From Amoebophrya sp. A120 (lineage: Eukaryota; Protista; Dinoflagellata): a stretch of DNA of 64,000 nucleotides. Shown here one piece after another: positions 946 to 58,256 of the stretch. Every line of letters begins with the position of its first letter. The stretch's first letter is position 1. The stretch spans positions 5,917,754 through 5,981,753 of the forward strand of contig CAJINV010000005.1 of assembly GCA_905178155.1 (NCBI GenBank), written 5' to 3'. The notes under the pieces were generated by a model. The model searched no databases, was not told where the DNA came from, and saw only the letters and a program-made list of their open reading frames with translations. Made by a program: the position numbers and the translations under genes.

Positions 946-2741
946 TTATATTTGACTCCTCGCCACAATGCCAAAATCCCTTCGCGAACGCGATAAGTTT
1001 CGTAGTTGTAGAGACAGCACTGCTCTTCGCTTTCGTAACCTCCCTTGCTTGACATCCTCCAACTTTTGCTCATAATGCTCGTCGGTGCGAAGTATTCGGG
1101 CGGTGCAGTAACCAGAACGCTCGTTGGCGGGCAGAATATCCTCGTCTGGGCGAACGCGAACAGCCTTTGTTGTATGACAGGGAAGGTATTTGAAGACATC
1201 TGTGCCAACGGAATGCTGATAATTATGGGATTCTCAAATGTCACATTCTCAACTGTTACATGAATTTGTCGTGCAAGAACAGCAAAAGTGAACGCGGGAA
1301 GATTGCGCGCTTTGCATTACAAATTTGGAGCGCATTCAGGTGGTGTTTAGCCCTTCGAGAATTTGTCATGCGAAGCACCTTGATCGTGTGGCGGCTTATG
1401 GTTATTTTGCATGACAAATCATGTAACTGCTGAGAATGTAACAGTTGAGAACGCCATAATAATACGTATTCTCTTTCATGTTCTTCTCGATGTAGGCTTT
1501 GACGTCTTCTCCTTCGCCGCAGCACCCTCCTTGCGGCAAGTTTTTCGAGGTCTCCTCAGAAACTTGAGCTGGAGCTGTCCGCCCTGCGGACGTCTCTCGA
1601 GGTGAAGGCTGTTCAGCAGGAGGTATTTTTTCGACATGATGATCATCGGGCGGGACGGGAGTAACTTTGCGACCCAACAACGTAGGAAAAGGAGTAGGAC
1701 ATAGCTCCGCCTCCGCAAAGGTACTGAAAGGCCCTCCTGCAGCGGGTGATCCTTGCGCCTGCCCTGGGGAGAGATCTTCATCGGGTGCTGCAGCCGTTCC
1801 TTCAGAACCACTCTGGAGCTCCCAAGTATCGCATTGAAGACACCACTCCCCAAAAGAGAAAAAACAACAGACAAGCACTGTCGACGCAATATAGATAGAT
1901 GATGGCGCAGGCGTGAGTGTTGAGTTGCAGAGGGCATCCAGGATTCATTGCCGATGTCTAAGATTGCATGTTTAAATTGATGCATCAAGAAGACAGCTCC
2001 AATGCAACACGAGTCGCATTATACAGAAAAATGAACGATATTTTTTTTTGAAAAAACAGATACAAGCTCACTTTCCTCCTTCTGCTGAACGTGGAGCGCT
2101 CAGTTTTCAATGTAATACCCTGGAGATAAACTCGCCAGCGACGAAGCCAGGTCGTGCGCCTCTCCCGCCCGACCACGTTGGGTCAAAGTTTCATCTCCTG
2201 TGAGGCTTTTGACAGCGGCCGCTGGAACCATCTCGCCTGCGGCCTGTGCGTCCTGCTCCGACAGCAATCCCGCATGATCCTCACCCGTCTGCAAAAAATC
2301 GGAATGCCCCCCAAGCGCGGTTTGGCTGCTTGCATCAGCATCCACTTGGTCGCTACTGGTCACGGAAGACAACGCCGAATGCAAGAAACTATTGTTGCGC
2401 TTCTTGTTCCCATGGTGGTGCCCATGACCATACCCTCCACCACGCCTTCTCTTCCTTCTGCCCCTGCTGCTTCCCATCCCGGACCGCCGCCCGGGCGCCT
2501 CCCCGGAATTCGCCATGGCGAGGCCAAACCGCGCGGCCATCGCTTGCTCGTACGCCATGGCTTGCTCGTCAGCTTCGTGATGCTCTTCGAGGAAAGCGTA
2601 CGGATCTTGTTGTTCGGGTTTTTCGTTTGCTGCTTTATTCGGGGTAGTTTTGGTTTTCCTCCTCTCGCCAGAAGCGGTGCTGTGTGGGGAGAGAAGGGCG
2701 GCGAACGCTGCCCGCGCGAGGTAAGTGCGTCTCGACATCAT
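946..2741 (-). CDS. Three-exon hypothetical protein of the modular (probably secreted) family; lacks the peptidase domain
   Basis: ORF 2100..2741 joins ORF 1402..1878 (LSPG|ELQSG) on removing 1827-2117+5 nt. It continues after 1224-1458+5 nt (ENTYY|QHSVGTDVFKYLPC) to TAA at 946-948. It shares GHSDFLQT...GEAHDLASSLASLSPG with the gene at 4956-9629. Start uncertain. Confidence 0.7.
1224..1458. mobile_element. Introner (IR-bounded non-canonical intron)
   Basis: TAT..ATA ends, roughly 55-bp imperfect IR, perfect TSD ataat/ataat; removing 240 nt keeps frame. Confidence 0.85.
1827..2117. mobile_element. Introner, same site as 8509-8810 in the duplicated module
   Basis: IR tatcgcattgaagac / gttttcaatgtaata; flanks ccaag/ccctg; removing 296 nt matches the ORF frame offset. 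Confidence 0.75.
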
Positions 2742-3388
2742 CAGCGGGGACAGCGTCGTGGTAGTAGACGACCAGCTAGTAGCAGGTTGGTTGTCGGCCG
2801 GAAATAAACCAACTAGAACTTGATGCTGATCGCCGTCCTGCCACTGCTACTGTATTTGTTCAATGCAGCTGATGCGGCACCTAGAAAAAGTTGGAGGCTT
2901 TGCTTAGTTGTAATGAAAACGCGAGTCGTGGTGGTCGTCCAGGTGGCCACTCAGATCATGCCGGGACATGTTCTTTGTTGGAACACACTGCCGAACTGAA
3001 ACAGAAGAAGGTGGGTCAACAGAAATCCAAATCTCGAGGTGCAGCTTGAGCTTATAAATATTTGCCTCAACCTCGCCGGGGTCAAATAAATCAAAAGTCG
3101 GAAAACCGTAAAATACTGAGGTGGGGCGAGTTCGAGCCTGATTTTCATATTTTCATTAAGAAATGCAGTTTTTATCTTGTCGTTGTTACTTGAACTTGAT
3201 GAGAGGTTGCCAGGAAACTATTCTATCGTATCGATACCATCAACGAAGGACCGAAGTAGAGCAGCTTAGGCGCCACGCACTGGCACTACACGACCGACCG
3301 CCGATATGGAATAATACGCAACGGCAAACGACCCATTGGAGGGTTGATACTAATGTAGAAGTACAGTACCGCTTTTGCTTTTGGTGTT

Positions 3389-4955: not shown

Positions 4956-7900
4956 TCACCGGCCGGAACCAGTGCCGGGGCAAGTAGAAGCATGGTCCTC
5001 GAGGTATCTTTCCAGCCTGTCGCGATCCGACGTCAAGTCGCGTTTTTCTTTTTCTGCGTCCTCAAGCTTCCAAAAAGCATCTAGCGCGCGCGCCTCTTCC
5101 TTGGAACAATCTTCCAGCGCCTTAATATCCACCGCACTCTGCACAACGGGCTGTAGAATTTGAGCAACACGCTCAGCGTCCGTCAGCCTTTGTTTTACTT
5201 TGGAAAGCCTCCTGTCCTTCAGCTTGCACTTGTGCGCTGCCAAACGCGATCCCCCCACGTTCCAGACCATAAGCTCCTTCCCAGTCGTACCGGCGCCCGT
5301 CTGCCCTTGTGGCACCCCCCCAAAATACTGCACATATCTGTCTTCGCGCTGCCGGGGGGTCCAAGGAACGACTGCGGCTGTCTGCTCTACGATTCCCCGC
5401 ACGCGTTCAGCTGCACGGCCGACGCCGCGCGACATCTGGCTCACATTCCACAGCTCCTCGTCGTTCGTCCGCCAAAGATTGGCCAGATCGTTGACGAAAT
5501 GCTGGCAATTGCGCCAGCATAGCCAATAACCCGATTTTTTTTTCTTTTTCTTTTTTTCGCTAAGCTGCCCATTAGCTTTAGGCTTAGCACCATATCCGAG
5601 CGCCTCCCCCAGTTGTTCCACCACCGACGCAATTTTCTTTAGGGAGACTCTGTGGCCGCCGCCTTCATCCTTGGGTATGTGCAAGTTCGTGGCGAGCAGC
5701 ACAAACGAACTCCAATCCACTTCGACCTCGCGCACGGCGTTTCCTACATCTTTCGCGAAACGGTCGACCTCATTTAGCAATAAACTTACCATTCCCTCAA
5801 AAGCCGTCGCTCGTTCCTTCTTCAGCCCCTCTTTGTCATCAGATGTCAGCTTCCACGACGCCGGCGACCAGCTTTCGAGCTTCTGCTTTGCAGTCTCGTA
5901 CTGTTCGGCATGCTCCTTGAGCACTTGTCTTCTGTTTTCGCTGAGTTCTGATAGAGTGTTGTCATCATCGGACACATGACCGAGAGCAATTTTACGATAG
6001 TTTGCGAGGACCTCGCCCGCCTTTTCGTAGACGTAGGGCTTGCATGTGGAAGACTCGAAAACGGCGATCTTCGGCGAATTCCACACCAGCTGAGGTCGAT
6101 CGACAATCCATCCGTCTGGTCCAAACTCGGCAACCACGACCTCCTCAAGGCGCTTCTCTGGCTCCGTAAGTGGTTCGGCGCCGGGAGCTCTGGCTGGGGT
6201 AAACGTAACGTAGAAATGCTCTATACCTAGACCCATTATACGACACATTTTGGCACGGATTTCCGTGATCGCGTCGGTGGAGATTTCCTGGTCCCACTCG
6301 TTCGTAAATGTGTTGCCCTTTCGCTGGCCGACGTCTCCTCCAGCAAAAAAGGCCGTGAGGTGTTGCCACACTGTTGGCGCCACGTCTACGACATCAACAC
6401 CCGGCGGTGGGTACTCGTCGAGAACCCTGTCGTGCACGGCATCGCGCTTCTCGTCTGTTGTTTTCACACTCTGGACCTGCGGGAGGCCGCCCGAGTTTGG
6501 ACTCAACAATGGCAACCGTGGCATTGTTGAGTCCACGCCCACGCCCAACGAGTTTTTCTGTGTAAAAGAGGGACCGCTCAGCTGCGACGATTCGTGTGTC
6601 GCAACATTTCCTTCTTCACCCATAGCGTAGTCCCCGAGACTACTTCCAGCAACTCCCGGCAGAGGGGCTCTCTCGTTCAATTGGGTTTGAGTTTTTTGTC
6701 GGTCTACTTCGGGTGCTTCTTGATGTGCTTCTGCTTTTTCTACTTGCATCTGTTCTCCTCCGACGCGTTCTTGCGTCTCACCTGCACCCAACCTTTCCCC
6801 AACGGGAATTCCTCTCCTGCCGGGATTCGTGTTTCTCTTTGTCTTTTCCGGCTCTTCTGAAGCAGGTTCTGCGTCATATCTTCCAGTGCCACTTGTTTCC
6901 GTTTTCGTTTGCAGCGTCACGCTGCCTGTTTGCCTCATTTGTCCTGCATCCAATTTCACAAGCTCAGTTTGTTCATCTTCAACACCGGTCTTACTTTCGA
7001 AGTGCGGATCAGCCTGAGCCTCATATGCAGTGCAAATGCGTCGTCGTCCATTTCCATCCTCATTATCTAGAAACGAAATTTGCAAATTAACAGGCCCGCC
7101 AAGAAGACGACGCCCGGTCAATGTTTTTTTCAGCTGCTCGACGTCCGTCTTGTACTTGCTTACTAGTAGTTTTTAAGAGCACGAGCTGTCATTTTATTTA
7201 CTTTTTTCGCGAGCGTGATCATCATGAGAGAGCAAAAAATAAAAAAAGAAGTTGTACTATAGTGCGGTCTGTGCCTGCTGCACCACATGCCAGCCTGACA
7301 ACAGTTTCCGTTCGACGAGGACCTGAAATTGACCCATAACAAAAATGCGCAACAAGTGAACTCGATTACGCCCCCAAAGCTGTAGTATCCACTTATCATC
7401 TGTAAAAGTAAGCTCGGACTGTGCAGCTACAATTGACGGCGTTTGGGATATTCTTTGGAGGTAGAGAAGTTCCACCTCCTCCTGCAGTAGTTGAACTAAA
7501 GGTATACGTCATATTTGCACTGCATACACGACAGCCCTCAAGGTGCGCGAGAGGTATGCCTTGGTCTTCAGGACGTGCTTTTTGGGTAGGGACATCTCCT
7601 CCCGTCAAAACCCCAGCGTCTGCTGCTTTCTCCACATCACGAGCTTGTCCTTGTCCATGTTGATCTTCGGAGGTTCCTTCGAGCTTGAGAAAGGACTGGT
7701 GGGAGTCGTCCTTTTTGTCGTCCGCTGGTAGTTGTTCCACAGGGGCTTCCACTCCGTCCGGGATCAGCTTCAACATGTTGTGTGGCGTAGGAAATTGTAA
7801 CGACGGCACTTCTTTTCCTATCCACTGCAAACGCGTCAACGGGTTCGGGGTCCCAACGAGCCGCTTGCTGACATTGCAAGCTCGTGAAGATGCTGGTATT

Positions 7901-9629
7901 TGTATATGGTATTATTAACCATGGATCAGGATAAGTCTGCGAAGACTTCTAATTGTCATCCCTCAAGAGGATGAGCGAAGGCTCTCCATGTTTTGCCCCG
8001 GGAAGCGAACGGGTATCAACATCTGTCATGCGGGATAAGCATCTTCAGGCTCGGGGTCGGGTATGAATAAGATGCGCATGACAAAGGATGTTCGCACATG
8101 GTTTACTCCCAGCTTAGAAGAAGACTAAAGGTTTGCAGTGGATATTCAGATTCGCCCCAACTGCACTTGTACTTCCGGCGACCGCAACATTGTCTGCTTG
8201 TTGTACTTGCAGAGCAGAGTGGTCAGCAGAGCCAGCCTGCCCGCCTTGCGCTCCCGCGTGGCTTTCCTGAGTCGGGATCAACTTCAGCATGTTGTGCGGC
8301 GTCGGAAATTGCAAAGAAGGTTTTTCCTGATCCTGAGCGGAACCTCCAGAACGCCCTCGTGTGAGCGTAGTTTTCGTTTCGTCATGATCCTCGTCTTCTT
8401 GTTGTACTGCTTGCAGAAATAAAGGCAGCTTTTTCCGCAGCGTGCTGTCGCGCTGAAGCTGCTCGAGTCGAGCATCTCCCTTCCGCAGGGAGGAAGATTC
8501 TTCCCAAGTATCGCATTGAAGACGCGGTCCTCCCCACATCAGAAAACAGAAGAGAGGAATACTGTGGCCCCCTTCTTGTCGCTACAAGAATAAAAGGAGT
8601 AGCAGGGCGGGTGCGGAATCGGAATCACACGCCACAAATATGGTGATTTGCGGATCATTCGGATTCGTGAAACGCAAGAATTATGCAGATCCAGATTCAT
8701 CATATCAAGATTAAAATGCTCAATTTTACGAATGGAAAAACGCAACTCTCACGAACTCATTTTTCTGTTCCAATCCTTCAAAAGTTGAGCGCTCAGTTTC
8801 CAATGTGATACCCTGGAGACAAACTCGCCAGCGACGAAGCCAGATCGTGCGCCTCTCCTGCCCACCCGTATTGTCTGGTAGAAGTTTCATCTGCGAAGCC
8901 CTTGGAAGCGGCCGTTGGAGCCATCTCGCTTGCGGGCTCCTCCTGCTCCGAGAGCAATCCCGCAGCCGCACCCGTCTGCAAAAAATCGGAATGCCCAAAT
9001 AACGCAGTTTGGCTGGTGTTCACATCGGGATCGCCATGATCCGAGTGGTCGCTTGTCGAGGATACGTGTGTGAAAGAAGCGAAAAACGCGGCGGCTGATT
9101 GTTCCACTCCGGAGCGGAGGGCGGTCCAGAGCTCTGTCGCAGTAACATTTGTCGTGCTGTTTTGGTCCTGTGTCCGGTTGTTCGGCGTGTAGTAGATTAC
9201 CGTCTCCGGGTCTTTCAGGAACAGCCACTCCGGCAGCGCGTCGAAGAAGCCAGTACTTCCACCGAACCCCTGTTCCATCAGATGGGACTGCTCATTGTGT
9301 AGTTCCAGGAACGAAGTTGAACTAGAACTGCTGCTCGAGGACGCCGCGTTCTGTTCCGCCTCCGCCACTGCGTCAACAGCATCGTTTTGGTCGTCATTTC
9401 CAACACCGGCCTCGTCTCCTGCTCCAACTGGAGGTGTTGTTGTGCCACCACCTCGTCCACCCCCCTGGGCGAATCCGGATGCGCCGAATGCCGCGCCGCC
9501 CGGATAATTCGAATTCCCGCTATAATTTTCCACCCGGCCGACCACGTCGCCCTTCTCGTCCAGCAATTCTAAAACGAGTTCGTTTGGCGCCAAAAATTTC
9601 GTCGCGTCCCGTTTCCAAGTTTTTCTCAC
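4956..9629 (-). CDS. Multi-exon protein with C-terminal PPPDE/LRAT-like permuted papain-fold peptidase domain (paralogue A)
   Basis: ORFs 8793..9629, 8114..8539, 7396..7839 and 4956..7121 fuse in frame after removing three introners. Motifs EHFYVTFTP...VVVAEF and YWLCWRNCQHFVNDL. 5' end unresolved (may extend to ~10000). Confidence 0.75.
7024..7526. mobile_element. Introner, 503 bp; reads GT..AG in the inferred splice register
   Basis: Perfect 14-bp IR tatgcagtgcaaat; degenerate flanks cctca/cacga; removing 508 nt matches the frame offset. Confidence 0.75.
7819..8144. mobile_element. Introner, homologous to 49847-50130
   Basis: Perfect 14-bp IR tatccactgcaaac; flanks tttcc/ttcag; removing 331 nt gives GANL|KEVPSLQF. 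Confidence 0.8.
8509..8810. mobile_element. Introner, same site as 1827-2117
   Basis: IR tatcgcattgaagac / gtttccaatgtgata; flanks ccaag/ccctg; removing 307 nt matches the frame offset. Confidence 0.75.
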
Positions 9630-12352: not shown

Positions 12353-15300
12353 TCACTTCAACGTAGTTGATGTCGTGCTGTCCTGCACAAACAACGACCC
12401 ACCTACCAGTGGACTGCTCCCTCGCTCGGACTCGAAAAACAGCGACATCCTTCGCTCGTACATTTTTTCCTTTTCGTCCTCGTAGTCCAATTCTGTAATC
12501 GCCGAATGGGTCTGCCAACACTCCGGAATGGAGTTGTCATCCTCTACAAGCTCGAAGGGAAACAAGACCACGGACGGCTCATAGTCTTCTCCTAGGTCGA
12601 CGTCGTTTTCAACTGCAATATCGCAGTTATTCTTCCTCGTTGTGGTCCGCCTTCCAGAAAATTCATATTCATGAAATTTCTCTCCTCCACCTTCTTGCCC
12701 CTGCTCATCATGTTCGGGATTATAGCTTTCGTTCGCAAATTGAACTTCCGAACTGTCCTCAATTTCCTCGAACTGAAAATCATCCTCAACCGGGGGGAGG
12801 TGGTCCAGTTCGTGGCCAGTAACGTCATCTTCGTCCTCGTTGTACTCGCCCCCGTCCCCGTGGAAGTTGTGTAGTTGACCCTCGTCCACCTCGTCACAAG
12901 GATCATGCTCTTCGTTTCGCTCGTGGTCTCCTGCTTCCTCGTAAAAATATTCCTCCTGGCTGAAAGAACATCTCCTGCGCATTGTCTGGTGAAACTGGTC
13001 CTGGTCCGCCACAATAATCGTATTTTCATAACCCGGAGGTGGGTCGTGTGGGTCCTGATCTAGCAGGCTGCTAGCTGGCCGGGAAGTACTAGCTGCTGCA
13101 GGTAGCGAGCGGCTTCTAGGCTCAGGTGTGATCATCATGTCATTTGTAGTAGTCGACATCCCGCCCCCGCCGGGAAAGGGCTGGTGCAGCAGCGTGCCGT
13201 AGTTCCTCCAGGTCTGCAGCGTGGCTTCCCGATGCTGGTCTGTATCATGTGTTGTATGATCAGCCTGGTGCATCACGCAATCTTCGATATCAGCGTCTAT
13301 GTCTTCGTTCTGGTTTATTCGGTGCTGAATGCTAATATTTTCAACCCTTCTCCGTGTCCGTTCCTCCTCGACGCTGTCTTGGATTTTGTTAAAGAGCACA
13401 TTCGTCGAGGTGTAGTGACGGGCGCGTGATGAAGTACAACTACGATTGATGTTCTGATCACGATCATCATGATCTTCCTCCTCGTCAAAAAACGCCCCAC
13501 TGCGTTCTTCGGCCTTTTGTGCTGCTCGGGGGAAATAAAAGTCGCGACCTACGAGGTGGTCGTCCTCCTCTTCTCTGCCGCTGCTGTTCCGCCACTGACC
13601 CAAATAGGGTTGGTTGTGGCTGTACTGGGTTTTCTTGTTTTCAATGAACTTATCCTGCCGAGGATCATGGGAAGAACGGTTGACAAGATCTTCACTCCTT
13701 GCTCGTCTGGCGTTGTAGTTGTACCGAGGCCCGCCTGTCCTCGTGGTGACACAAGCAGTACTTCCAGCCGCATTGATGTGCAACTGCGATGTTGCAGCTG
13801 CTGTTTCTGCTGCTGCAGCCGCGGCTCTCCGTCGTCTTGCGGCACGCCGGCCGCCCCTACCTTTGTTGCCGCCCTTGCCGCCTTTTGCTGCAGAAAAAGT
13901 AGCGGCCGTGTTGTTGTTCTTGTTCTTGCCAGCTGCATCGAAAGAACTCCGGCTGCTGGTATCCTTGTGATTTCTGGAACAGGAGGACGAATCGACACGA
14001 TAGCGATAAGTGGTGGAATATGCAATGCAAATATGTCTGGGTCTGGAAGAATGAAGCCTGTCATGCGAAATCTGGATCACGAGATGAAAATCTGTGTTGC
14101 ATGAACGCCAACAGTTACCCAGCTCTCGCTAGGCAAAAGGGGAATTTCTCATGCGGAAGCGGCATGGGGAAGGTCTTAAAGAATCTGTGATGCTTCTGCC
14201 TGCATTACAGACCATGAGTGTGGTCCGCGAGATGCATGACAAATCTCGCAACTTTCGAGACCGAGACATTTTTGCATTTGATATGGAAGTAGTTTTTCCA
14301 TTCGCCTTTTTCACACCAACCTTCGATAATTTCGAAGAGGAGCTTGTGCTACCGCTCCGGACAAAGAGATGAGCTCCTGCTGGTGCCTTCTTGCTGTAGT
14401 TCTTGTTTCTGTTTCCTCTCTTGTTCGTCCAAGAACTCCTTGACTGCTTGTTGTTCAACATCGTAGAAGTTGCTACAACAGTACTGCTTTTCCGGGTCTC
14501 GGCTGTGGTGCTGGAGAAACAAGAGGAGGAACGGTTATTGTAGTTCGCCATATTTGTATTGCTGGTTGGCACACCCGCATAATGTTGGTGGGTCTTGTTG
14601 TAAGAGTTGTGCTTCTTGTGACCACCTTGCTGTTCCCCACACGGAGTGCTAGTGCTGCGCTGCAGCATCACACCACCATTTGTTACGTGATACTCCTGTT
14701 GATCACGGTACTCATTTTCGCAAGAGCTTCTCCCATGGTTGTGCTCCTCCTCGTAAAAATAACTCGCAGGAGAACTACTTCTCTCCGACAAAGACTGCCA
14801 AGTTGACCTGCTGTTCGGAACTACTGGCACTACAGGAGGTGAGCTCCTACTCTTTTTCAGCCCCTGACTCTCCGTTTTGTAAAAAAAAGAGGACGACGAG
14901 GGTGCCCGGGTGGTGGCGGTCGTAGAGGAAGTTGCTCTTGTTGTCCTGGATTTTTTCTTCCCTGTTAGTTCTACATCACGTGGTTGATTTTCAACATGTT
15001 CCTCTTCTTGTCCTCCGGAACTGCAAGTCGTGCAGGGGTCGTGAGGAAGATTCGACATAGAAGAAGGAGTGTAACCCGCGACCATGTGCGCCGAGCAGTA
15101 AGAAGGAGGTGCACAACTTGTCGGATGAATAAAACCAACGTAAGGCAGTCCCGCTGGTGCAGGCATGACCATGGCCGGTGGCGGTAACAAATGCGATGCG
15201 CTGTGGAAGCTGGTTAGACGTGGGTCAACACAGGGGGTTTGGTGGTGGTAAACAGCTGGCATACAGCTGGCCGGGACTCCTGTGGCGGGGCAGGGTGGCA

Positions 15301-17800: not shown

Positions 17801-20800
17801 TCATGACCCCGTCGTAGTTCCAGCCCCCGCGGCAGCCGAACTTCCACCTCCCTGAGCTACGCCGGCCGCTGCAGCTGCACCTTCTCCTGTAGTTCCTGGG
17901 TTCGCGGCGAACATTGCAGGAGGAACACCACCAACAGCACCAGCCGGACCCGCCACACCGGCTCCTGCGGGCATCGGCATGTAGATGGTTTGGATGGTCT
18001 GTTGCCCCGTCATGGGATCGATCGTGGCAATCTGCTGTGGTACCAACATCATCGGTTGGGCGGCGCCGGGGGGCTGCATCAGCATGGGCTGGGCAGCGAA
18101 CGCCGGTTGTAGTTGTGGTTGCTGGTGCATCATCGGAAAATTCGGGACGGATGCGGATGGCGTCGTGCCTGGCTGCACTGGTTGCATGGGCATTTGCATC
18201 ATTGGTTGCTGTGGTTGCATCATCATCGGCTGCATCAGGGGTAGTTGTTGCGGCGCAAACATTGCACCTGTCTGCGGCTGTGCTGGCTGCTGCTGCTGTA
18301 TCCACAGTAAATTTCCTGTACACGTACAAATGCGGTCTCTGCATGGCAAAACTTGGCTTCGATCCTAGTTTAGCATAACAAGTTTCACACTCCAAATGCG
18401 GGAAATTTGTGATGCATCTTGTACATGTACGGGAAATTTGTAATTGTATTGCATATGCTGTACAGTCATGCTATTAACCACGTTCGCAAACGCGTTGAAA
18501 GTTGGAGCCTGTTGTAGAGGTTCTTGTCCTTCTTGCGCCGCAGGAGCTCCAGTTACAACTGAGCTTACTGCAGCCGCCGTTCCTGCTGCCGCACTGTCAT
18601 CTGCTGCGTTCGTACTATTCTGTTGCTCCGACGCAAGCTTGTCTCTGGTCTTCTTATACGGACCCCTGACATATGCGCTAGTTCTCGTGTATGACAGTCC
18701 ACTTGCAGCTTTTGCCTTCGCAGCCTTGGCTGGCTTCACCGAGACAAGTGCAGTACTAGATGAAGATGATGCTGCGGCAGGAGCCCCGCTAAGAGTACCT
18801 GTTTTGTTAGAGGAGGAGGTCGCGGCGGCGGTATTGGTAGTTCCTGCTACTTGTCCTCCACCTCGCTGACTCATCTTATTGCTCCTGCTAGCTGCCACAA
18901 ACCGCTCCTGAATCACCTTATCTCCCTCCATAATCCGCTCAATGTCCTCCCCCAACAGATTTCGTTTGCTCTCGCTGATCAAGACATTCGGGCCGAGAAA
19001 GTACTGCTTCTTCTTTATGCATTGCGAATATGTCTGGGTCTGGAAGGATGCGAGGTTTGCGCTTGCCATGCGCATTTTGCATGACTCCTGATGTCTGTGA
19101 TGCATGCCCTAGCGTCACAGATTTTGGGAGGGCTTCCTGATGCCTATACCGCATGAGAAATGTCCTCTCTCCGGGGGAAAAACTGGACCTCTTTTGCTGT
19201 TCATCATGCAATACAGATTTATTGCAGAATCCAAATCCAGCATCACAAGTTGCAGTCTTCCAGACTCAGACATATTTGCAGTGGATATTCTTCGGAATCA
19301 TGCGGTTCGGGAATTCGGAGAGGGCGGGCTTGGTTTTGATCTTGTTGTCCTCGGAGACAGGAGATACAGTGTCCTTGTTCGTGTTCCCCTTAGCTGACTT
19401 CATCATCTTTCGGCCAGAGGTGGTCGCGGCTCCTTCTGCTAGCAAAAGCGAAGCTGTTGTACTTTTTTTTTCTACTTTCGGATTCCCCTCCGTATCGTAG
19501 TCCGTCAGCATCTTCAGCTGATCTAAATCCGCCTGCGTTTTCCGTCCCTTGGACGCCCGCACGCGCTCCGCCCCGTTGCGGTCGAAGAGAAGCGGATTTT
19601 TCCTCCTCTTGAAAAGTTTTGGCTTGAACAGCTTGTACTTGGAAAAGAAATTTGGAGCTCCTGCGCTACCAGCTACTTTGGACGCCGATGCAGCTGCACC
19701 TGCTCCTGCTGTTCCTGCTGCGTCGTCGTCGTGGTCAGCATCTTGATCTTCATCCCCGTCGTGGTTCGCAGAAGTCGGCAGCTCACGTCGGCCATTGTAA
19801 AGTTTTTCCAGAATCGATTTGGTGATTTTGATTTTGTTCACCTTCGAAGTAGCTACCCCTCCCGGTCCACCTCCAAAACTCCCGTAGAAATTCTGTTTCG
19901 GCACGCAGAGTCCCACCTCCCGTTTCCATTTCGAAACCACCAGCGGCCGCTGTTTCTCGACGTGCAGGTTCAGCTCCTGAATACGCAATACACGCCGTTT
20001 CGTGTCGATGAGGTCCTGTTTGAAATCGTCCTTGAACGGGAGATCGTGGAAGAAAAGCGGGGTTGTGTACAGAAATTCGCTGGCCAGACGCTTTTTCCAA
20101 TTCGTGAGACCAGGAGTAGTTGAGCCTCCCCCGCCTGGCTGGATTAATATCTCGTCTTCGGAGTCGTTCGTCTTCTTGTCGTGCAACGAAGATGAACCTG
20201 CTCCGAAGTAGCTCCTCTGTTCCAACACCAATCCCAAGTCCCGACTTGCAAACAACTCCTCCATCGGCAGAATGGGCAACACGGCGTACAGGCGTAAAAC
20301 CGACCGCAGCCAGGGCAAGGCCGTGTCGAAATCGTGGCGGGGTAGGAACTCGCAGTTAGCGTAGTGATGGAAAGAGTGGTCAGCCGTGTCAGTCTGAGTG
20401 TTTAAGTTTAATATCATCGGAGGTGCCTGCACTGTCGCGAAGGGGCAGAAACGACGGTCGAAGAAGAAGTCGGGTCTGCTGGAGGAGCTGATGTTCGGTG
20501 TTGATGATTTACTTCTTGTAGTTCCCTTCTTTGCGCCGTCCTTTGCGTTCTTTTCCTCTATAATTTCCTCAGTCCCAGTTGTATAGCTGGTGTTCTCCTC
20601 AACCAATCCGTAGCAGGGGTCAATCACGTATCGTGCAAAAAAAGTTGTGTTTTGAAGTGTAACAAATTTGGGCATCATATTCATAATGCAGTGAAGACAA
20701 CATCAACACATCAAGCAAGAGTAGACAACTACGAAGCACCAAAACTTGTACTTGTACAACTGCAGAAGTAGACCCTGCTGCACATTAGAGAAAATCTGTC

Positions 20801-23800
20801 ATGCGTTACTGAAGCCCTCAAATAAATCGTTAACGCTTAAAAATACACTTTTTCTGTTTGATACCACATGCAGCCCCTCCGCGGAGGAAACGGTGGACTC
20901 AAAGGTTCGGGCGTACGGATGTTGTAGTGCAGTCGATGAAACCGCTCCTGATGACTTTGATTTATTTCCACACCTCTTCACCTTCTTCTCCAGATTTTCG
21001 AAAAACGTGGACGCGCTGAGCCGCTGGCCGTGAAAGTCGCCGATGGATTCCATGGGAACGCGGAAGTACATCGAGAAAACGCCGTAGGTGGTCTTCTTTT
21101 TGGTTGCATCTGAAGGAGCTTTCGCCTTACTACACGAGGAACTTGATGTTGTACTAGGAGCGGTATACACCCCCTGTGGGTAAAACCACACCTCCGCGGG
21201 GTCGTGGCGGTCCAGGATTTTCGCAACGGTGTCTACAAGAATCTTCGGGACGTGGTATCAAATGCAAAAGTGTCTGGGTCTGGAATGTTGATGCCGGGTT
21301 TGTCATGCATATTTTGCATGACCCAGGATGTCTGTAATGCATGACCCAGCATGGCAGATTTTTAGAGGGCTTCCTGATGCCTATTCCGCATGACAAATGC
21401 CCTCCCCGCGTAGCACAAACTAGACTCCCCTTGCTGATCATGCAATACAGATTTTTTGAGAGTCCAAAGTTAGCATCACAAGCTCCAACCTTCCAGACCC
21501 AGACATTTTTGCATTTGATACGTGAAACTTCTCCACGAATTTCTCGTGCAGCTTCCACCCGTGGGTCTTCACCGCGATAACCTTCTTCTTGTTTGTCGAC
21601 ACATTTGCTGACGAAGAGGCCGCAGGCTTGAGAAGAAGACTTGTATTTGAGGACGCTGCACCCGGGACGAGATGATTCTTTACCGAATCCAAATCGAATT
21701 CGTCCCTCTCGCTGCTGCCGATTTTCACCACAGTTCTATTTCCCGCAATGTAGTTGTTCTGTGATTTCTGACCCGCCGTATTTGATCCCGCCGCAGCCCG
21801 TTTTTTCTTCGTAGTTGTCCCTGCCGCGGCGGAGCTACTGGAAGAAGATGAAGCTCCCCCACCACGAGCGCTTTTTCCACCAGGTTCGAATCCTGCTTGA
21901 TCCTGTTCTTCAGGACCACTACTTCTATCGCCCACCACCACCACATCGTCAAAGCACGTGAGAATCTTCCGCTTCTCAAAGTTTTCCTTGTCGATTTCCT
22001 CAAAATCCTTCAGCAATTTCTCGTCCACATTCGCTTCATTGACCGCAACGCCGGTCGAGTCGAACAGAGCGCGTTCTGGGATCAGAAATCTGTGCAATTT
22101 CATCGAAAAAGCAGTGGAGAAATCATCCTCGAGGACGGCTGGATTTTCAATCATCGTCGCGGTACTAGTAGTTCCAGTAGAACTTGACGACGGTTGTACA
22201 TCTACTCCTGCCCTAGACAAGAAATCTTCCCCCACTTCCACAACTTTCCCCCGTGCATAATCCGGGACGATGTTCAGTCTTAGCAAACGCCAAAACGCGT
22301 GGTTCGCGCGGTTTTGGTGCAGGAAGGCACGGAGAATGGTTTGCTGCTCAAAGTAGGTGGTGAGCAGGTTCTTGTGCAGGTGCTCGATCTTCTTCGGGTA
22401 GGCAAATTTGTCCTGGTCGGGATCGGTGTGGTAGTTCGGGCAGGGATTGAGCATCTCATCCAGTTTGAAGCGGGACACTTCCCGCCAAAATCGGTGTGCG
22501 TTATACATTGCAAAAGTATCGTACTAGTGTGGGTCGCGTGACAAATTAGCTCAGTATGAAGAGAAATGGAGTCTGTCATGCTGATTTGCCTTGAGATGGA
22601 GGTTTGTAATGCATGACTGCGATCACTACGAGTACGATACTTTCGCATTGGATACGCGTATAGCTGCTGCGATTTCAGATTTGGCGAAAACTGCTGCTTG
22701 TCGTTCGTACCGGTCTGATGCCCAACATCTTCCGTAGTTCTTGTGTCATCAAAATCATACACCACGGGGCGGTAGGGATAGGGTTTTGGAAGGCGGAAGT
22801 TTTTTGATGACGACGACGACGACGACGTAGAAGTACTAGCTGCACTCGAACTCGTGCTATCACGGTAGGAAACTTTTGGAAAGTATCGGAGCGGCTGGGA
22901 AGTGGACTCTGCCAGTGTAGTTGTTGTACTGGAGGTGGAAGATGCACCAGCTACTGCGCTTGCTACCTTGTTCTTTGAAGTAGAAGCTGAAGCAGTGGTC
23001 GCTCCGGACGATGAACTCGTCGCGGAAAGTAAAACAGCGTTTCGAAAAATCCGCTCCATCTCCCCTGCCTCGTACGGCATGGGCTGGTGCGCAAATCTGG
23101 AATCAATGTATTCGTCGGAAGTCGGCTGGAGTGGGGGCGACTGGGGCAGCTCTACCGACTTTTTCCGGGCGGTGGTGGAGGACTTGTTTTTTGAGTCCAC
23201 CTTGTCTTTTGTTGAGTTCTTTTTTCCTGCTGCAGGCCCTGCTGCTGCTGCTGCAGCTCCCATTTTGTTCATTTTGTTTTTGCTTCCTGTTTTGGTGTCT
23301 GCAGGGGCATCTTTTTCTTTATTCTGTTTTTTCCCGGATTTACTGGTCTGCTCCTCTTTCAACTTTTTTTTCTTGACTGCTGTTCCAGCATTTTTGTCCT
23401 GTGCAGCTGCCGGGCTCTTTGCATCGTCATGACCTTCTTCATTATCGGCCGAAGCACGACGATCATTCCCGGAGAGACCAACTCTTTCCCCCCGCCAGAC
23501 CCCGTCGCCAAACCGTTCTTCTAAATACTCCTTCTGTTGTTTCCGCATTTTTTTCTCCGTTTTCTTGTCCAACAACATTAGTGCGACCTGGAGCTGATAC
23601 AGCAGCTCTTCCGCCTGCTCGGTTTCCTCTTCGTCGTAATAGTCGTGGGGATCGGGGTTGGCAGTAGTTGTATTTGAGGTGCTCGCTTTCATATCATCTT
23701 TTGCATTTGCGCCGGCTTGTTGAAATAGAAATTGCTTGCTCTCTTTTTCATCCCCCCGACGGTCTTCCACCGTTTGCTCCACGGAGCCCTCCACTTCCTT

Positions 23801-36700: not shown

Positions 36701-38040
36701 TTCGTACTTGTTTTGGTTTATCGGGTTCATCTGCAGGTGCCATCACACCAAAAAGTGTTAACGTTGACGGAATTTGTAATGCAGGAGCGCATCACAAAAC
36801 ATGGCAAAATTTGTAAATGCATAGCATGCATATTGGGCTACGCTTGTGATGCATGACTGCAATCTGTGAAAACCGTTAACGTTAACACTTTTTCCTGTGA
36901 TAGGTGCGACTGGAGTGGTACCCCTTCTTCTTCGGGGTTTATGCCGGGCAGGGTTGAAGACCCACCGAGAGCCCCAAAGTCGATACTTGGGCTATCACGT
37001 TGAAAAAAAAAGCTCACCCTTCAAATCGAAGCCCAATTTGTGTTGCGGTGTCAGTTACAACTGATATTAGTAGTTGTCGTTACGCGTAAATTTTCCATAC
37101 GGAGGTAAGGATAGCTGACGGTGTTGGGGCTTTGAATGCAAAATGGAGAACAGAGGTATATGTCCCTTTGACACCAATGTTGCCTTGATGCACGACAGGC
37201 TACGACCACCTTGTGACAACTAGAAATGCTGGCTTCGAGTGTTGTGGGTTGTTTTTTTTTTTTTCCTTCTCATACCCGCCCCGCCCCGGGTAAGCCATTG
37301 ATTGGTGCGCGGTAATTGCTATGCATTGCACAAGTATCGTATTCGTAGTATTGCAATACAAATTAGCTCAGCATGACTACAAATGGAATTTCTCACGCTG
37401 ATTTAGCTTAAAAGAGAAATTTGTCTTGCGAGTACGATACTTTTGCACAGGATAATGGCGGGTGTCTGCAGTTTTGGTGTTTGCTGTACCGAGTTCGCCG
37501 AGAACTGCACGGGGTTTGCCACATCTGTGCGTGTCAGCGGAGAGGCGAGAGGAAGATTTGGCGCGTCTGGTGCGGATTGGTGTTGCATGTTGTGTTATGG
37601 AATGTAAAAATGTCCGGGTCCTCTGGAAGATTCTGACACTTGTCATGCACGTTTTGCATGAGCCCTGATGTCTGTGATGCATGCCCGAGCATCACAGATT
37701 TTTCGAGAGCTTCTTGCTCTTGATGCCTATTCCGCATGAAAAATGCCCTCTCCGCGTAGCAAAAATTGCATTCCTTTTGGTACTCATGCAATACAGATTT
37801 TTCTAGAATCCAAATGCAGCATCACAAGTTGCATTCTTCCAGACCCAGATATTTTTACATTTGATACGTGTCCGGCACTTCCGGGAGTTGCTGCTCCACC
37901 GCCCCGGTGCTCCTCGTGCTCGGAGATGGTCAGCATCGCGACTACCAGAACAATCTTGGTGCCCGCAACTACAGCCTGCAGCTATGTGGGCTGCGTTCCC
38001 GTACTAGCAAGCCGGTCGTCCGATTTGTTCTTGTAGTATA
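33770..38040 (-). CDS. Highly fragmented hypothetical gene(s); exon chain only partly resolved
   Basis: Short coding-like segments separated by five introners and GT-AG introns (e.g. 34753-34927); joins such as SAGH|NMQHQS and GQRLL|YIKPQEV are open. Confidence 0.45.
35796..35967. mobile_element. Introner family C, inverted relative to 18299-18455
   Basis: Perfect TSD agcag; the reverse complement aligns along the whole length of 18299-18455. Confidence 0.85.
36558..36706. mobile_element. Introner family A
   Basis: IR tgcaaaag(t/c)atcgtactcgtataaatgca; perfect TSD cttgt. Confidence 0.9.
36741..36902. mobile_element. Introner family D
   Basis: IR (c/t)atcaca..aaaaagtgttaacgtt; perfect TSD ggtgc. 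Confidence 0.85.
37320..37454. mobile_element. Introner family A
   Basis: Family A IR; flanks attgc/atggc. Confidence 0.85.
37596..37866. mobile_element. Introner family B
   Basis: Homologous to 19016-19287 and 21256-21520; flanks tgtgt/cgtgt. Confidence 0.9.
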
Positions 38041-53092: not shown

Positions 53093-53326
53093 CCGCGAAA
53101 TTTCAAATTTTTATTTTTATTGAAACCGCGGATCCGCGAAAATTCAAAATTTTGTTTTTTATCGGCCACCCCGCACATCAAAGGCGCGCGACACTGGCGT
53201 GGAGAAGAGAACCCACACACCCGCAGATTTAGTGACTCGGGAATTTGATGCATAATGTTCCAAAGCAACAAAGCGAAATCTCAAAATCAACCACAAACCG
53301 CGGAATTTCAAATTTTTATTTTTATT
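53093..53326. repeat. Three copies of a ~29-bp intergenic motif
   Basis: ccgcg(a/g)aatttcaaatttttatttttatt at 53093 and 53298, with a variant at 53134. Confidence 0.8.
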
Positions 53327-53787
53327 ACGGGGAAATGTCACATGAAATGTTCAAAACAAACCCGGGGCGATAGCTCAGATGTCCTTCGGAGGGAAATGAC
53401 GGTGGAATCCGAGTCCAGCTATCTGGGTTACTCGCCCGCCGCCCGTCCGGGTTCTTGTAACTCGTAGTAGTCCTGCGACGTGAAGACTAAAAACAAAGAG
53501 CTGCTGGCCTGTAGGAAAAAGATCATGACGCAACTTCAGCATGAATGAGAAGAAGACCTTCGATCAGATGCGCATCTTCACAACGGGGCTCAGCCACATA
53601 ATTAACCACTGAATTGAAGCGATTCTCATCCTTACAAATGCGTCTAGTCAACAACAAGCTACTGGTCGCAATAATGATTGTGAATAAGGAACTAGCTCTT
53701 CCCGCCGACGCAACGCCTACGAGCGCGAGCGTCATCCCAGCACCCAGAAGTCGTCCTCCTGCTCTTCCGACTTTTCATGATCCACCG

Positions 53788-56700
53788 CTAGTAGCGTCCC
53801 CGCCCGCTGACGTGATTTTGGTTCATTGTCGGGGTGGAAAAGTCATTCATGTTGACCAGGGTGCCGGCCTGGTTGTTTAACTGGTTGTATTGCGACGTTT
53901 GCGCCGGATAATTCGGGTGGTGTTGCTGCAATTTTTCCCCCGTGTAGAGGTTTCTCGTCGGAAGTCCCGGATTTTTCGCTCCCACAGTCCGGGCGGAGGA
54001 GGAAGAAGAACCTCCTAGTCCTCCCGATGCTCTAGTACTTCCACCACCCGCCTGGTAAAGATTTGAGGGAGGCAGTGGTGGCGTCATGGTTAGACTTGGG
54101 TTCAGATTTGCGTAGTTGATGTAGTCCGCGGAGGTCGTACTCAATTTATTTGCAGATCCCGCTGCCGCTGGAAGGGGCGGAGGGAGGGTTGGCGTCATTC
54201 GTAGCGCTTGATGCGGCTCAATATCGACGTGTAGTTCCTGTCGCGATGATGAAGAACCTCTTTCTTCGTAGAAATTGCCGCCAACACCGTCGCTAGACCT
54301 CCGCGCGGAAGATGAAGTTAGAGCTGCATTGCCATTGGAGGTCGCGTTCGCGGCTGCAGTGTAGCTCCTCGCCGAGTTCTTCAGTTGCTGGTTGTTCAGC
54401 GCGAGGGACCGGTTGAAATTCATCAGCGCGCGGCTGATGTTGGTCTCCGCGATTTCAATTTTTTTCACACACTTCTCGATTTCGGATCTACAGCCCTCCA
54501 CCTGGCTGGACAGTTGTTGGTGCTGGGTAACCAGGAGCAGCGGCCATTTAATCTTTGGAGGCGCAGCAGAAGAGCCGCCGAATTCTTGAAGTAAGTGGCC
54601 GTCCTGTTGAAGCTGCTGTTCTTGTTCCTGTACTCCTACATGTACTGTTGACAACAATTCCTCATCCTCGAGTAAAGGCGCTATGGCGTGCTGCGGAAAC
54701 AAAGCCTCGGCTTCTCCACCGCCAGCTGGGGTTTTTTGGCTGCTGGAGGAGGACGTCATAGACACACTCCGGATCTGAATGCTCGAGGTTGTAGTTACTG
54801 CCGCAGGTGGCATGAGCTCCTGGGGCCTATTCCGAGTTGAAGTCGCAGCGGATTTTTGATCTCCAAGAACGACTTGCTCGCCATTCCTCTTTGACATTGC
54901 TCCTCTTCTGTTCTTCGCATCGACCGGCTCTTCACCCTTCTCTTCTTCCCCCTCCGACCTCCCAGCAGCCTCCTGTGCTCCACCACTAGCTGCACCTGCG
55001 CGCGTTGCTGCATCACCGACAATGAGATGACTAGACGCTGCTGGACCCACGAAATCTTCACTATTGAAGTTGCAAAGCGTGAAAAACTTCACGTCCAGGC
55101 AATCCAACAACTCCTTGATTTTCGCAAAAGCGACCTCCTCGTCCCGATTGATCATTTGTAGCAGCGAGTGGCTCATATGAACTGCAAAAGTATCGTACTC
55201 GTATAAATGCATTACAAATTTCCTCAGCATGAGAAATAAAATGTGTAATGCGGATTTACCTTAACACAGGGATTTGTAATGCATGATTGCAATTCGAGTA
55301 CGATATTTTTGCACAGGATAATTCACCCGTCGCAGCAACTCCGCTAACTTTTCATTAAACGAGTCCTCGGTCTGTTTTATCCGCAGCTGCGTTTTCTGCT
55401 CGACGGAAGCCTGGAACTGCGCCAATGCTGCCTTGGTGCAGATGAAGTCGTCCTCCTGTTCGGAAGGACGGACCGCTGGAGTAGATGAAGTTGTGGCCGG
55501 TCGTGGTGCACCAGAGGGTGGAGCGAATGTCGTCGCGCTAGCTGAAGATGACGAGGAGGAGGAACCACCAGCAGCTGTAGGAGCTGCCAATGCTACTGCG
55601 TCCTCGAGTTTTGCTATTCCTCGAAAATTTGCCACCCTCAACATCCATTTTTTGCATGACAAAAGCAGAATTGGAATTCAATTATCCCCTCCCCCGTGTT
55701 TTGCATGACAAACTGCATGGGGATGGTCATCAATTTTCAGGGAATATTGGCGATCCGTCGGCTGTATTTCGTGTCCAGCATGGCCACAAGCTTATTGAAC
55801 ATGCTGTCGGCAGGGATCATGGTAGTGGGATTGTGACCACCTCCACCTCCGGGTTGCTGGCCACTGCTGGAGGAAGTGGAAGAAGACGATGCAGATGCAG
55901 CTCCGTTACTTGCTAGATCCTGCAGCTGTTCAGCGGAGTTACTTATGCACTTCAAAAACTTTTATCCGAATCCGCCGGTGATGTATGGCCTTGCAAGAAC
56001 AACTCGAAAGCTATTTTTACATACACGACATAAAAAGCTTCGTCTACTTGCCATCAATTCACTTGGAGGTGAAGCCCGTTGTGAATTCCGTTGTGCTGTC
56101 AACATGCTGGAGTTGGTCGCAGGAATAAAGTTTGTGATAAACAAGAGCAGCTTATGTAATAATGATCGATCTCGTGAAGTAGATCATCGTGCTTGTTATT
56201 CTAATCCGGTGTGATCGTCGTTTTTGCAAATGCTTTTCACCACACGGCACGCAGCGGGAGAGAAAAGAAGTAATGCTCCGGATAATTTTCCTCAGTTGCA
56301 CAAGCGGTTCGTCCTCGTATTTGTTTTCCAACTTTTGCAGCTTCTGTTCCAGAAACTGCAGCCGTGACTCGAGTTGCAGTGAGTAATCGTTCAGTTTCAG
56401 AAATCACAAGGGAAAATTTTGTTGTGTCAATCGCATGCGTAGTTTTTTTTTTCTGTCCATCAACATAGCCAAGCGCTGCTCGTGCTTCACGCGCACGCCC
56501 AGCAAGAACACGACATGCTGCTTCCTAGTCCTCTTTAGTCATGCACACTTGACACAATCTCTTTATTTTCCTTCGATATCGAGTTTGCCCGCTCCATGTG
56601 CTCCGCCACGAGAAGGATTTCCTGTGAATTTGTATTTCTTGCTCCTGCTACTTAGCACGATGTTAATATCCCAGAAACAATAAAAACAGCTTGTAGAACC

Positions 56701-58256
56701 AGATGTGCGTTTCATGTTACATCTCTATGCATGACAGGAGGACGCAAAAAAATCGGAAAAGCAGAAAGCTTCTTCTTCTACCTTCGAGGCCGGCATGTAT
56801 TGCTCCCGTAGCGTGGTCACCTCGCGCTCCAATTCTTCCAATCGTGCGTCCCTTTCGTCATCGTGATAAGACTTCTGCTGGTTATCCTCCCTCTCGTGTC
56901 CTGACGAGGTGTCTCGTTCTCGATTTGGCTTGATGTTGTTCGCATTACTCGTAGAAGAGCTGCTGCTAGTGCTCGCCTTGATCTGAAGAAGAAGAAAGAC
57001 TTCACGATGAAATTTGTGATGCGTGACCCACCTATGAAAAGCAAATCTGTGATGCATAAACACGAATGAAGAAAACAAAAATTTATACATATACAATGTC
57101 AATCTTCTTGTGCAGCCGTTCCACCTCCTCGTAGAGCTCCTCAACATGCTGCACCTTCAGGGTATCACAGGAAAACCTTTATCTACAAGAACGACTCTCT
57201 ATCTCTTATTCTTCCGTCACCGTCCCAGCCTGCCACTATACAAATGATGTTTTGTTTTCATATTCACTACGGGAACAAAAACGAAGCCGCCGGAAGCAGC
57301 TCCGCAACTTGTCATGCAAAACCTGCTGCTGCTTCTGCTGCTAAGTCTTCCTCTGCGCAGCTAAGATCGTCACTGATTGTAGCAACTAGCATCACAACTT
57401 CGGCTGAATTGAAGTGGCTGTAACGGGTAAATCTAACGCTGTGATAAGCACACTCCGCATCCAATTTCCGCACGATCCACTCATGCTCAGCTTGCAGCTG
57501 GTCGCAGACGGCATACTGGAGTTTTTCAATACGTGGAACTCATGAATTTCTAAAAATGCAGCATCACAGACTACCTAGTATTTCATTTCCTTGTCGTCTA
57601 GTACTAATTTGTCATGCGCGCCGGAAAGAACGACCACGACATGCAAACAAATCTACTGACCGAATCATCTTCGCGAAACTGGTAAAATATACCAGCTTCC
57701 GATTTTCTTCCCGCAACTGTTGTTCGCTCGCAACGAGTCTCCCAATCCGCTCGTCGGTCAGAAACGTGCTTCGCCCCAGCTGTTGGTGTGCTGTTGCAGA
57801 GGTGGGCGTCGGGGTGGCGGAGCTCGGGGTGCTCCCTGGACCTGCAGCGGATGATCGCAGCACGACCTTGTTTTCGGTCGACATGATGCTTTCGGTGTCG
57901 TAGTTCGTGCACGCACCGTTGGCTCAGACGGGTTTTTTTTGGCAGGCTCTTGGAATATCAACAGGGAGGCACTGTTGTAGTCACGGCCGGATGACGGAAA
58001 TAACGGCTTCACCGTGCTCCTGCTGCAGGGCCCGCAATACGCAGTAGTGTTGACTGTCGCAGAGGAGTGACCGGTGGGCAGATGAGGGGCGCCCTGGAGC
58101 GAAAACTGTGCACAACCACGGGTGCCGGTGCAGCAACAGCTGTTGGTGTAGTTGACCTAGCTCTCTCCCGCCGTAGTACTAGGCCTAGTTCATCTTGCTC
58201 ACCTTCCAACTGCTCCTGTTTCTCTTGAGTTGTTGTACAACGGGCCCTCTAGACAT
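53788..58256 (-). CDS. Multi-exon coiled-coil/low-complexity hypothetical protein
   Basis: Joins RRIA|KLEDA and LRRVN|HSLLQ across introners, and KKIDI|IKAS across GT-AG intron 56983-57094. Heptad-like segments are present. The 5' exons are tentative. Confidence 0.6.
55176..55320. mobile_element. Introner family A
   Basis: Very similar to 36558-36706 and 27118-27265; flanks gctca/attca; removing 150 nt keeps frame. Confidence 0.9.
55615..55746. mobile_element. Introner family E
   Basis: IR tattcc..gaaaatt; flanks tttgc/ttggc; removing 137 nt equals the frame offset. Confidence 0.85.
57163..57446. mobile_element. Possible decayed introner
   Basis: 8-bp IR tatcacag/ctgtgata, no TSD left; removing 289 nt keeps LDAECA|KVQHVEE open. 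Confidence 0.45.

Follow-up and report, generated by a model that had tools for sequence, protein, structure and literature searches.

In a 64,000-nucleotide window (the whole stretch of DNA analysed) of the genome of the dinoflagellate Amoebophrya sp. A120, a marine parasite, contig CAJINV010000005.1, positions 5,917,754 to 5,981,753 of the forward strand, we found 34 short inverted-repeat elements with TAT…ATA ends and one 1857-bp element with TTA…TAA ends. In every case tested, the short elements are taken out at the RNA level with a net loss of the element length (L) plus five bases (L+5), and a single position of the cuts is common to all informative junctions: the intron starts with the base in front of TAT and extends 4 nt past ATA. 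These are A120 introners with a 5-bp duplication, and we consider it probable that they are non-autonomous transposons of integrase type, which a modified spliceosome excises in this register. Exon queries matched Amoebophrya sp. A120 proteins at 100% identity in three of three cases; the window is eukaryotic and all its long frames lie on the minus strand.

Insertion and removal of the elements

Detection in the window combined an inverted-repeat scan without an assumed motif (38 clusters), a triplet scan and reading by eye. The first list (1224-57446), with 29 short elements next to the 1857-bp element, was drawn up with knowledge of the end triplets; five further elements (at 1827, 8509, 31942, 55944 and 56402) were added via gene models. 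An independent set came from one related metagenome assembly and covers 129 of about 200 loci, 532 kb in total, 80 of them with full flanks. Its loci were fetched with a 22-base end of family B, so that the set is enriched for this family by design. They carry the same families as the window, with up to 74-98% identity, and have no long unique stretch in common with it. A detector that ignores the flanks gave exact matches to 19 of the 34 elements in the window, made two other calls, and returned none in three shuffled windows. The orientation of metagenome elements was taken from open frames, which were unanimous at 48 of 49 loci.

Insertion came with a 5-bp duplication. In the 29 window elements first listed, the 5-bp flanks agree at 112 of 145 positions (77%), against 17–33% for lengths of 2-4 and 6-10 bp, and nine duplications are perfect. 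Among metagenome elements called blind to the flanks, the 5-bp duplication is perfect in 311 of 410 and matches at four or more of its five positions in 377; other offsets agree at 24–32%, at chance, and a perfect duplication of 6 bp occurs in 0 of 410. With the end triplets ignored in detection, 346 of 358 metagenome elements start with TAT and 344 end with ATA. In both sets the terminal inverted repeat reads TAT, about seven loose bases, then AAA. An earlier sequence-only reading of this stretch had proposed TAT…ATA ends plus a 5-bp repeat, perfect in 9 of 29 cases, and both the scans and the blind metagenome test bear this out. The end variants it mentioned exist too, but they number three CAT starts and four GTA ends rather than one and three.

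The elements are given below, with the number of matching bases in the 5-bp duplication (dup) and the evidence for each. The register, q, is the number of duplication bases retained in the upstream exon; it is bounded where the two copies differ.

1224..1458, minus: introner, 235 bp, dup 5/5; frame only
1827..2117, minus: introner, 291 bp, dup 3/5, paralogue of 8509-8810; frame only
7024..7526, minus: introner, 503 bp, dup 2/5, sole GT-AG in the fixed register; annotated intron 508
7819..8144, minus: introner, 326 bp, dup 2/5, paralogue of 49847-50130; annotated intron 331
8509..8810, minus: introner, 302 bp, dup 3/5; annotated intron 307
14019..14283, minus: introner, family B, in the reverse orientation to the remaining B copies, 265 bp, dup 5/5; L+5 joins a 1134-aa frame
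18299..18455, minus: introner, family C, 157 bp, dup 5/5; annotated intron 162, RNA contig boundary 18456
19016..19287, minus: introner, family B, 272 bp, dup 5/5; RNA skip 277, annotated 277
20629..20863, minus: introner, 235 bp, dup 3/5, excludes register 5; RNA sum 510 with 21256, annotated 240
21256..21520, minus: introner, family B, 265 bp, dup 4/5; RNA sum 510, annotated 270
22502..22654, minus: introner, family A, 153 bp, dup 4/5, excludes register 5; RNA skip 158, annotated 158
24981..26837, no strand given: foldback element, TTA…TAA ends, 1857 bp, 643-nt arms, dup 5/5; sequence scans
27118..27265, minus: introner, family A, 148 bp, dup 5/5; frame only
27381..27492, minus: introner, 112 bp, dup 4/5; frame only
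30870..31182, minus: introner, RING-finger gene, 313 bp, dup 5/5; RNA total skip 1511
31222..31501, minus: introner, RING-finger gene, 280 bp, dup 4/5; RNA total skip 1511
31942..32308, minus: decayed introner, 367 bp, dup 2/5, register 4 exact; RNA boundary 32310
35796..35967, minus: introner, family C, inverted with respect to 18299, 172 bp, dup 5/5; RNA skip 177 in X1 and X3
36047..36185, minus: introner, 139 bp, dup 4/5, needs register 3-5; RNA skip 144
36361..36551, minus: introner, 191 bp, dup 3/5; frame, and residues at the join as in homologue P0006
36558..36706, minus: introner, family A, 149 bp, dup 5/5; frame only
36741..36902, minus: introner, 162 bp, dup 5/5; frame only
36993..37274, minus: introner, 282 bp, dup 2/5; frame only
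37320..37454, minus: introner, family A, 135 bp, dup 4/5; frame only
37596..37866, minus: introner, family B, 271 bp, dup 4/5; frame only
40593..40846, minus: introner, 254 bp, dup 4/5; L+5 joins an 897-aa frame
42827..43162, minus: introner, 336 bp, dup 4/5; frame only
44773..45176, minus: introner, 404 bp, dup 3/5; empty paralogue site near 50907-50940
49847..50130, minus: introner, 284 bp, dup 2/5; annotated intron 289
50319..50635, minus: introner, 317 bp, dup 4/5; annotated intron 322
55176..55320, minus: introner, family A, 145 bp, dup 3/5, needs register 4 or 5; annotated intron 150
55615..55746, minus: introner, 132 bp, dup 4/5; annotated intron 137
55944..56284, minus: decayed introner, 341 bp, dup 2/5, needs register 3 or 4; annotated intron 346
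56402..56578, minus: decayed introner, transcript 3' end ATT, 177 bp, dup 2/5; annotated intron 182
57163..57446, minus: introner, 284 bp, dup 0/5, register 4 or 5, still L+5; annotated intron 289

Removal was followed in contigs of runs X1 and X3, presumed to be RNA (no run with the stretch carried an RNA label) and compared over window positions 18001-38000 with only part of the joints listed, and in A120 gene models, which derive from transcript alignments (PMC7789003). Run X5 is probably DNA, and run X8 contributed only four raw reads on the stretch, which are uninformative for strand and splice efficiency. The contigs or transcript-based models test 19 of the 34 short elements, and L+5 is removed in all 19. 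In the X1 and X3 contigs, 177 nt are missing at 35796 and 144 nt at 36047; X5, which traverses the same elements unchanged, has a depth of 0 at both joints. The skip is 158 nt at 22502 and, at 19016, 277 nt, again L+5 in either case. For 20629 and 21256 together, the unlisted part of the same contig record implies 510 nt, the sum of the two L+5 values. In the RING-finger gene, a model with three elements at L+5 and three GT-AG introns skips 1511 nt and keeps 642, totals identical to those of X1 contig record 4. Finally, four transcript-based A120 proteins cross 15 element junctions, each of them at L+5. Neither of the outcomes that would have contradicted the sequence-only reading, retention of the elements in transcripts or use of GT-AG sites at other lengths, was encountered in these 19 cases. 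The elements might instead be removed from the DNA, or be artefacts of assembly, since X1 and X3 are only presumed RNA. However, X5 crosses the element edges unchanged and without joints, X1 also skips canonical GT-AG introns, and the independent metagenome assembly has the same families; for the region compared this explanation is refuted.

The coding frames agree with the predicted offset of element plus five. With L+5 removed, the frame stays open for 150 nt or more to either side of 25 out of 30 minus-strand junctions, compared with 7-11 junctions for +3, +4, +6 and +7, and a frame of 2199 aa runs across eight elements; a search for the annotated A120 protein of this eight-element gene gave homologues only. 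Likewise, a paralogue without the 44773 element is shorter by element plus five at its empty site. Any insertion with a 5-bp duplication gives this offset, and the frames are therefore not evidence of splicing on their own.

Splice register and conserved end bases

In the RNA contigs, q cannot exceed 4 at 22502 and 20629, and it cannot be below 3 at 36047 or below 1 at 21256. It is exactly 4 at 31942-32308, where X1 and X3 both begin the exon at 32310. The gene models call for 4 or 5 at 55176 and 57163, for 3 or 4 at 55944, for 3-5 at 7024, 8509 and 56402, and for at most 4 at 20629. Register 4 fits 15 of 15 annotated junctions, register 3 fails at 55176 and 57163, and register 5 fails at 20629 and 55944 (gene models) and at 22502 and 32308 (RNA). 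Thus, q=4 is the only common solution, and the introns have the form N-TAT…ATA-NNNN. This register persists where the duplication has decayed to 0/5 or 2/5; because it holds at 57163 with a duplication of 0/5, the cut is measured from the element ends and not from the repeat. The proposal that exactly one copy of the duplication is removed is correct for the net loss, which is the element plus one duplication length, but the cut does not fall at a whole copy: the mRNA retains four bases from the upstream copy together with a single base from the downstream one. Since the copies are identical at insertion, these 4+1 bases restore the coding sequence exactly.

Under register 4, U at +2, A at +3, A at -7 and U at -6 are present in 34 of 34 window elements, and among 244 metagenome elements the donor shows no substitution at +2 and two at +3. 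Positions +1, -2 and -1 are free, with 22 end dinucleotide pairs among the 34 elements, and a purine follows the 3' cut in 22 of 34 and so is not required. GT-AG ends occur in 1 of 34 window and 3 of 159 oriented metagenome elements, as the near-absence of GT-AG pairs in the sequence-only reading had suggested. The single window case, 7024-7526, is old, with a decayed duplication and GT-AG in the same register, and may illustrate a route from introner to canonical intron. A window hint of drift toward GT-AG (G at +1, A at -2 in duplication mismatches) is absent from the 159 oriented metagenome elements and was dropped.

Splice sites could also slide inside the duplication and differ from element to element, register 4 being a coincidence of few informative junctions. 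The legend of Fig. 3 in Farhat 2021 does describe the sites as variable (PMC7789003), and in published counts NT starts are about as numerous as AN ends (6681 and 6598 of 9716 in family 2; PMC12130899). Such symmetric counts would, however, be expected if an aligner slides the gap in a perfect repeat toward GT/CT or AG/AC, and a single register recurs at all informative junctions, decayed duplications included. We therefore regard sliding sites as very improbable. For the same reason, namely the equal frequency of NT starts and AN ends, which probably stems from aligner placement, Table S4 of Farhat and the dinucleotide counts of Gozashti were rejected as support for register 4.

What marks the ends for removal can be approached through their variants. 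In transcript sense, the first end base of 244 oriented metagenome elements varies zero times at the 5' and five times at the 3' end, and the third base seven times at the 5' and once at the 3' end. With the window added, the figures are 0 versus 9 (p=0.004) and 11 versus 1 (p=0.006). U+2 and A-7 are therefore conserved, whereas the bases opposite them in the hairpin drift. Predicted folds pair the ends in most window elements, but the stems show no excess of G·U over A·C in transcript sense (231 versus 233 in 251 elements; 52 versus 56 in the window), a test blunted by family-fixed mismatches, and in the predicted fold of element 35796-35967, which is nevertheless spliced, none of the first 15 bases is paired with the far end. 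The fixed U+2 and A-7 and the missing G·U excess argue against excision by pairing alone, and structure-guided excision in the form proposed by the sequence-only reading is not supported.

These observations bear on the machinery. The same elements could be removed in the same register by a spliceosome-independent nuclease and ligase that measures from the hairpin base, as suspected for the nonconventional introns of euglenids. The free positions +1, -2 and -1, with their 22 dinucleotide pairs and no drift, would suit such an enzyme, as would the predicted pairing of most ends. Furthermore, U1 small nuclear RNA (snRNA) was not found in A120 (PMC7789003), and the introns of Euglena follow a hairpin code with fixed spacers and give circular products on excision (PMC12501133, PMC11282704). 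On the other hand, the absent G·U excess (with the limit just given), the strand asymmetry of the end variants, the splicing of 35796-35967 with unpaired ends and the resemblance of the 5' end to canonical GTA donors, which begin six of the six canonical introns modelled here, all speak against it, and we consider a nuclease and ligase possible but on balance unlikely. U2, U4, U5, U6 and nearly all spliceosomal proteins, though not U1 snRNA, were found in A120 (PMC7789003).

Under the preferred reading, a relaxed, modified spliceosome would perform the excision. The palindromic end may provide a donor-like N-U-A-Y as well as a fixed A seven bases before the 3' end, and the 3' cut would be placed by its distance from the far end, not by an AG. 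The hairpin could help to join the ends without being the sole signal. That A-7 serves as the branch point is a guess. A bolder version would make the transposon tip a complete, orientation-proof splice code, with a U1-independent N-U-A-Y donor, A-7 as branch adenosine, a ruler of 7 nt and no AG; strain A25 would use the same U+2, A+3 and A-7 shifted by one base, and one transposase family would have reshaped the spliceosome. We put this forward as speculation and think it improbable.

Families, mobilisation and neighbouring sequence

The 423 elements fall into 28 clusters, so that one rule does extend across many families. The families had been called unrelated, but they have in common a terminal consensus to position 14 (TAT-S-N-N-N-T-G-C-AAAA) and an internal motif, TGT[ACG]ATGC. 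The latter is present in 23 of 29 window and 398 of 410 metagenome elements, at a density of 12 versus 1.3 per kb, with a median of three copies per element and an inward orientation in 806 versus 431 cases. It also occurs in four of six canonical introns examined (GT-AG introns at 30580-30682, 56622-56781, 56983-57094 and 57516-57692), and may therefore mark old insertions or act in splicing. More hits lie at 34772-34871, 35147 and 35572 and may mark introns that were not modelled. Either orientation of insertion is tolerated (27/26 in family B, 20/15 in family A).

The elements are likely to be non-autonomous and are probably moved by one integrase-type transposase, with the internal motif as its putative binding site. 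The suggestion of a single transposase type is in keeping with the common consensus, 5-bp duplication and motif, but no transposase was found in the material examined and one family is listed with Mutator ends (PMC12130899). Several unrelated transposases, or a retro-type mechanism, might have mobilised the elements, their common ends being selected for spliceability. Gozashti 2025 indeed classes families as terminal inverted repeat (TIR), non-long terminal repeat (non-LTR) and unknown, one having Mutator ends and an 8-9 bp duplication (PMC12130899); the long element with its TTA…TAA ends and the lack of a transposase fit this as well. Against it stand one duplication length across clusters (at least 4/5 in 377 of 410), one terminal consensus to position 14 and one symmetric internal motif. 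None of these is required for splicing at the tip, and they therefore point to one protein family, which makes several movers unlikely in our view.

The 1857-bp element, which lies in an A120 gene, would violate the +3 A and -7 A rule if it were cut in register 4. Annotated protein P0001 begins just downstream of it, no RNA pieces among those listed cross it, and it has no match in the metagenome loci. Its DNA depth in X5 is about 3-5 times background over 24981-26837, and a diverged copy is present in an X3 contig. A presumed autonomous element in metagenome locus L044 (476-2934, 415-aa frame, perfect duplication) was rejected, being a short family-B copy beside host-like sequence without a Pfam match. 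No transposase family was met among 20 window or A120 proteins.

Several points weigh against introners moved by an integrase-type enzyme and removed by a modified spliceosome. RNA fixes register 4 exactly at one junction only, and otherwise register 3 is excluded by two annotated proteins alone; for 15 of the 34 short elements the evidence is that of the frame. The base counts of 34/34 come from a list picked partly on those triplets, the asymmetry of the ends is non-significant in the metagenome loci alone (p=0.06 and 0.07), and there is one 3' GTA exception. A standard spliceosome would favour drift to G, A and G at +1, -2 and -1, which the 159 oriented elements do not show. Lastly, no transposase was found in eight frames of the 1857-bp element or in 125 of 129 long open reading frames (ORFs) of the loci (four duplicates omitted), about 0.6 Mb being examined overall, and Farhat reports none in A120 (PMC7789003).

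Some neighbouring features deserve mention. Between two adjoining elements a 1-nt exon is predicted at 36553, and across the join the frame agrees with that of homologue P0006. The RING-finger gene (29990-32790) encodes a 423-aa membrane RING-H2 protein modelled over six introns, its length agreeing with the RNA contig, and a 1401-aa DEAD-box helicase ORF at 58631-62836 is free of elements. A local paralogous gene family occupies 949-2846, 4959-9278, 40813-45700 and 47624-51400; some members have weak PPPDE peptidase matches, and some element insertions are common to members and others absent. Outside the modelled genes, an inverted TAT…ATA pair without a 5-bp duplication at 10481-10953 may be an old element that lies in untranslated sequence. 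An intergenic repeat at 3980-4320 (inverted pair 4020-4135 plus a short tandem array) has ends unlike those of introners. Further intergenic repeats are the direct pair 38904-39003 / 47042-47141 (88% over 100 nt) and, at 53090-53330, repeats of an AT-rich unit.

Comparison with known systems

The elements themselves are not new. As the sequence-only reading stated, the class is published for Amoebophrya, with the same elements in the same organism (PMC7789003, PMC12130899), and the window elements agree with A120 introners in genome, TAT ends, 5-bp repeat, non-canonical removal and families. Farhat 2021 describes inverted repeats of TAT, seven loose bases and AAA, RNA-supported non-canonical ends, and direct repeats of 3-5 nt, with a 5-bp example in the legend of Fig. 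S19; repeat length and splice position are called variable and the border unknown, no motif links the families, and spread by a transposase is doubted (PMC7789003). The elements here differ from that description in having one repeat length, one register, strand-asymmetric bases and a common motif, although the figures of that paper may show more. The words 'lariat', 'subterminal' and 'ATGC' are absent from its main text (PMC7789003). In the sister strain A25, introns start with TT (Table S4) and elements have TTA…TAA ends, which those of the 1857-bp element resemble (PMC7789003).

Gozashti 2025 lists family 38 as 'Ginger, 5-bp TSD, TA/TA termini' (TSD, target site duplication), with TIRs and integrase-like ORFs but without Ginger termini; 5 bp are given in 7 of 58 A120 rows and 2-6, 11 or none in the others, and the passages and rows consulted state no splice register (PMC12130899). 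The class, the 5-bp repeats and the TAT ends are published. One register for all junctions, base conservation that differs between the strands and a motif common to the families were not found in print: searches of the Amoebophrya literature, as far as its text was covered, brought up neither a fixed register nor such a motif, and figures may hold part of this.

Of the introns in A120, about 65% are non-canonical, with splice borders and a mechanism that were left open in the genome paper (PMC7789003). A single positional rule would provide one code for tens of thousands of seemingly random ends and permit their re-annotation; it names the exact bases to mutate and the exact place to seek a lariat, so that the open question of splicing is now directly testable. 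The rule also shows how a transposon can insert into exons whichever way round it lands without cost to the coding sequence, and it suggests a spliceosome for which G+1 and AG are dispensable, which would explain how most A120 introns do without GT-AG.

Ginger2/TDD transposons have TGT..ACA termini and differ in this from the elements described here, which end in TAT..ATA. The duplication is alike, with 4-5 bp there and 5 bp here (PMC10045372). IS3EU/GingerRoot elements resemble ours in their TA..TA termini, TIRs and the likely integrase-related mover; their duplication is usually 6 bp instead of 5 bp (PMC10045372), and no transposase was found in the roughly 0.6 Mb examined here.

As to splicing, the donor bases U+2 and A+3 are those of U2-type introns, whereas GT-AG ends are absent in 33 of 34 elements. 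Euglena has similarly paired ends, cuts at a fixed distance from short motifs and no GT-AG, but its code reads N3-CDG … CHG-N5-6|R, compared with N1-TAY … AT-N-N4 here, where no purine is needed after the cut (PMC12501133). In Fritillaria borealis, introns derived from miniature inverted-repeat transposable elements likewise carry TIRs and a duplication and are removed by a U2-type spliceosome with relaxed end requirements; U1 is kept there and AG-AC and AG-AT dominate, whereas in A120 U1 was not found and positions +1, -2 and -1 are free (PMC11282704, PMC13326754).

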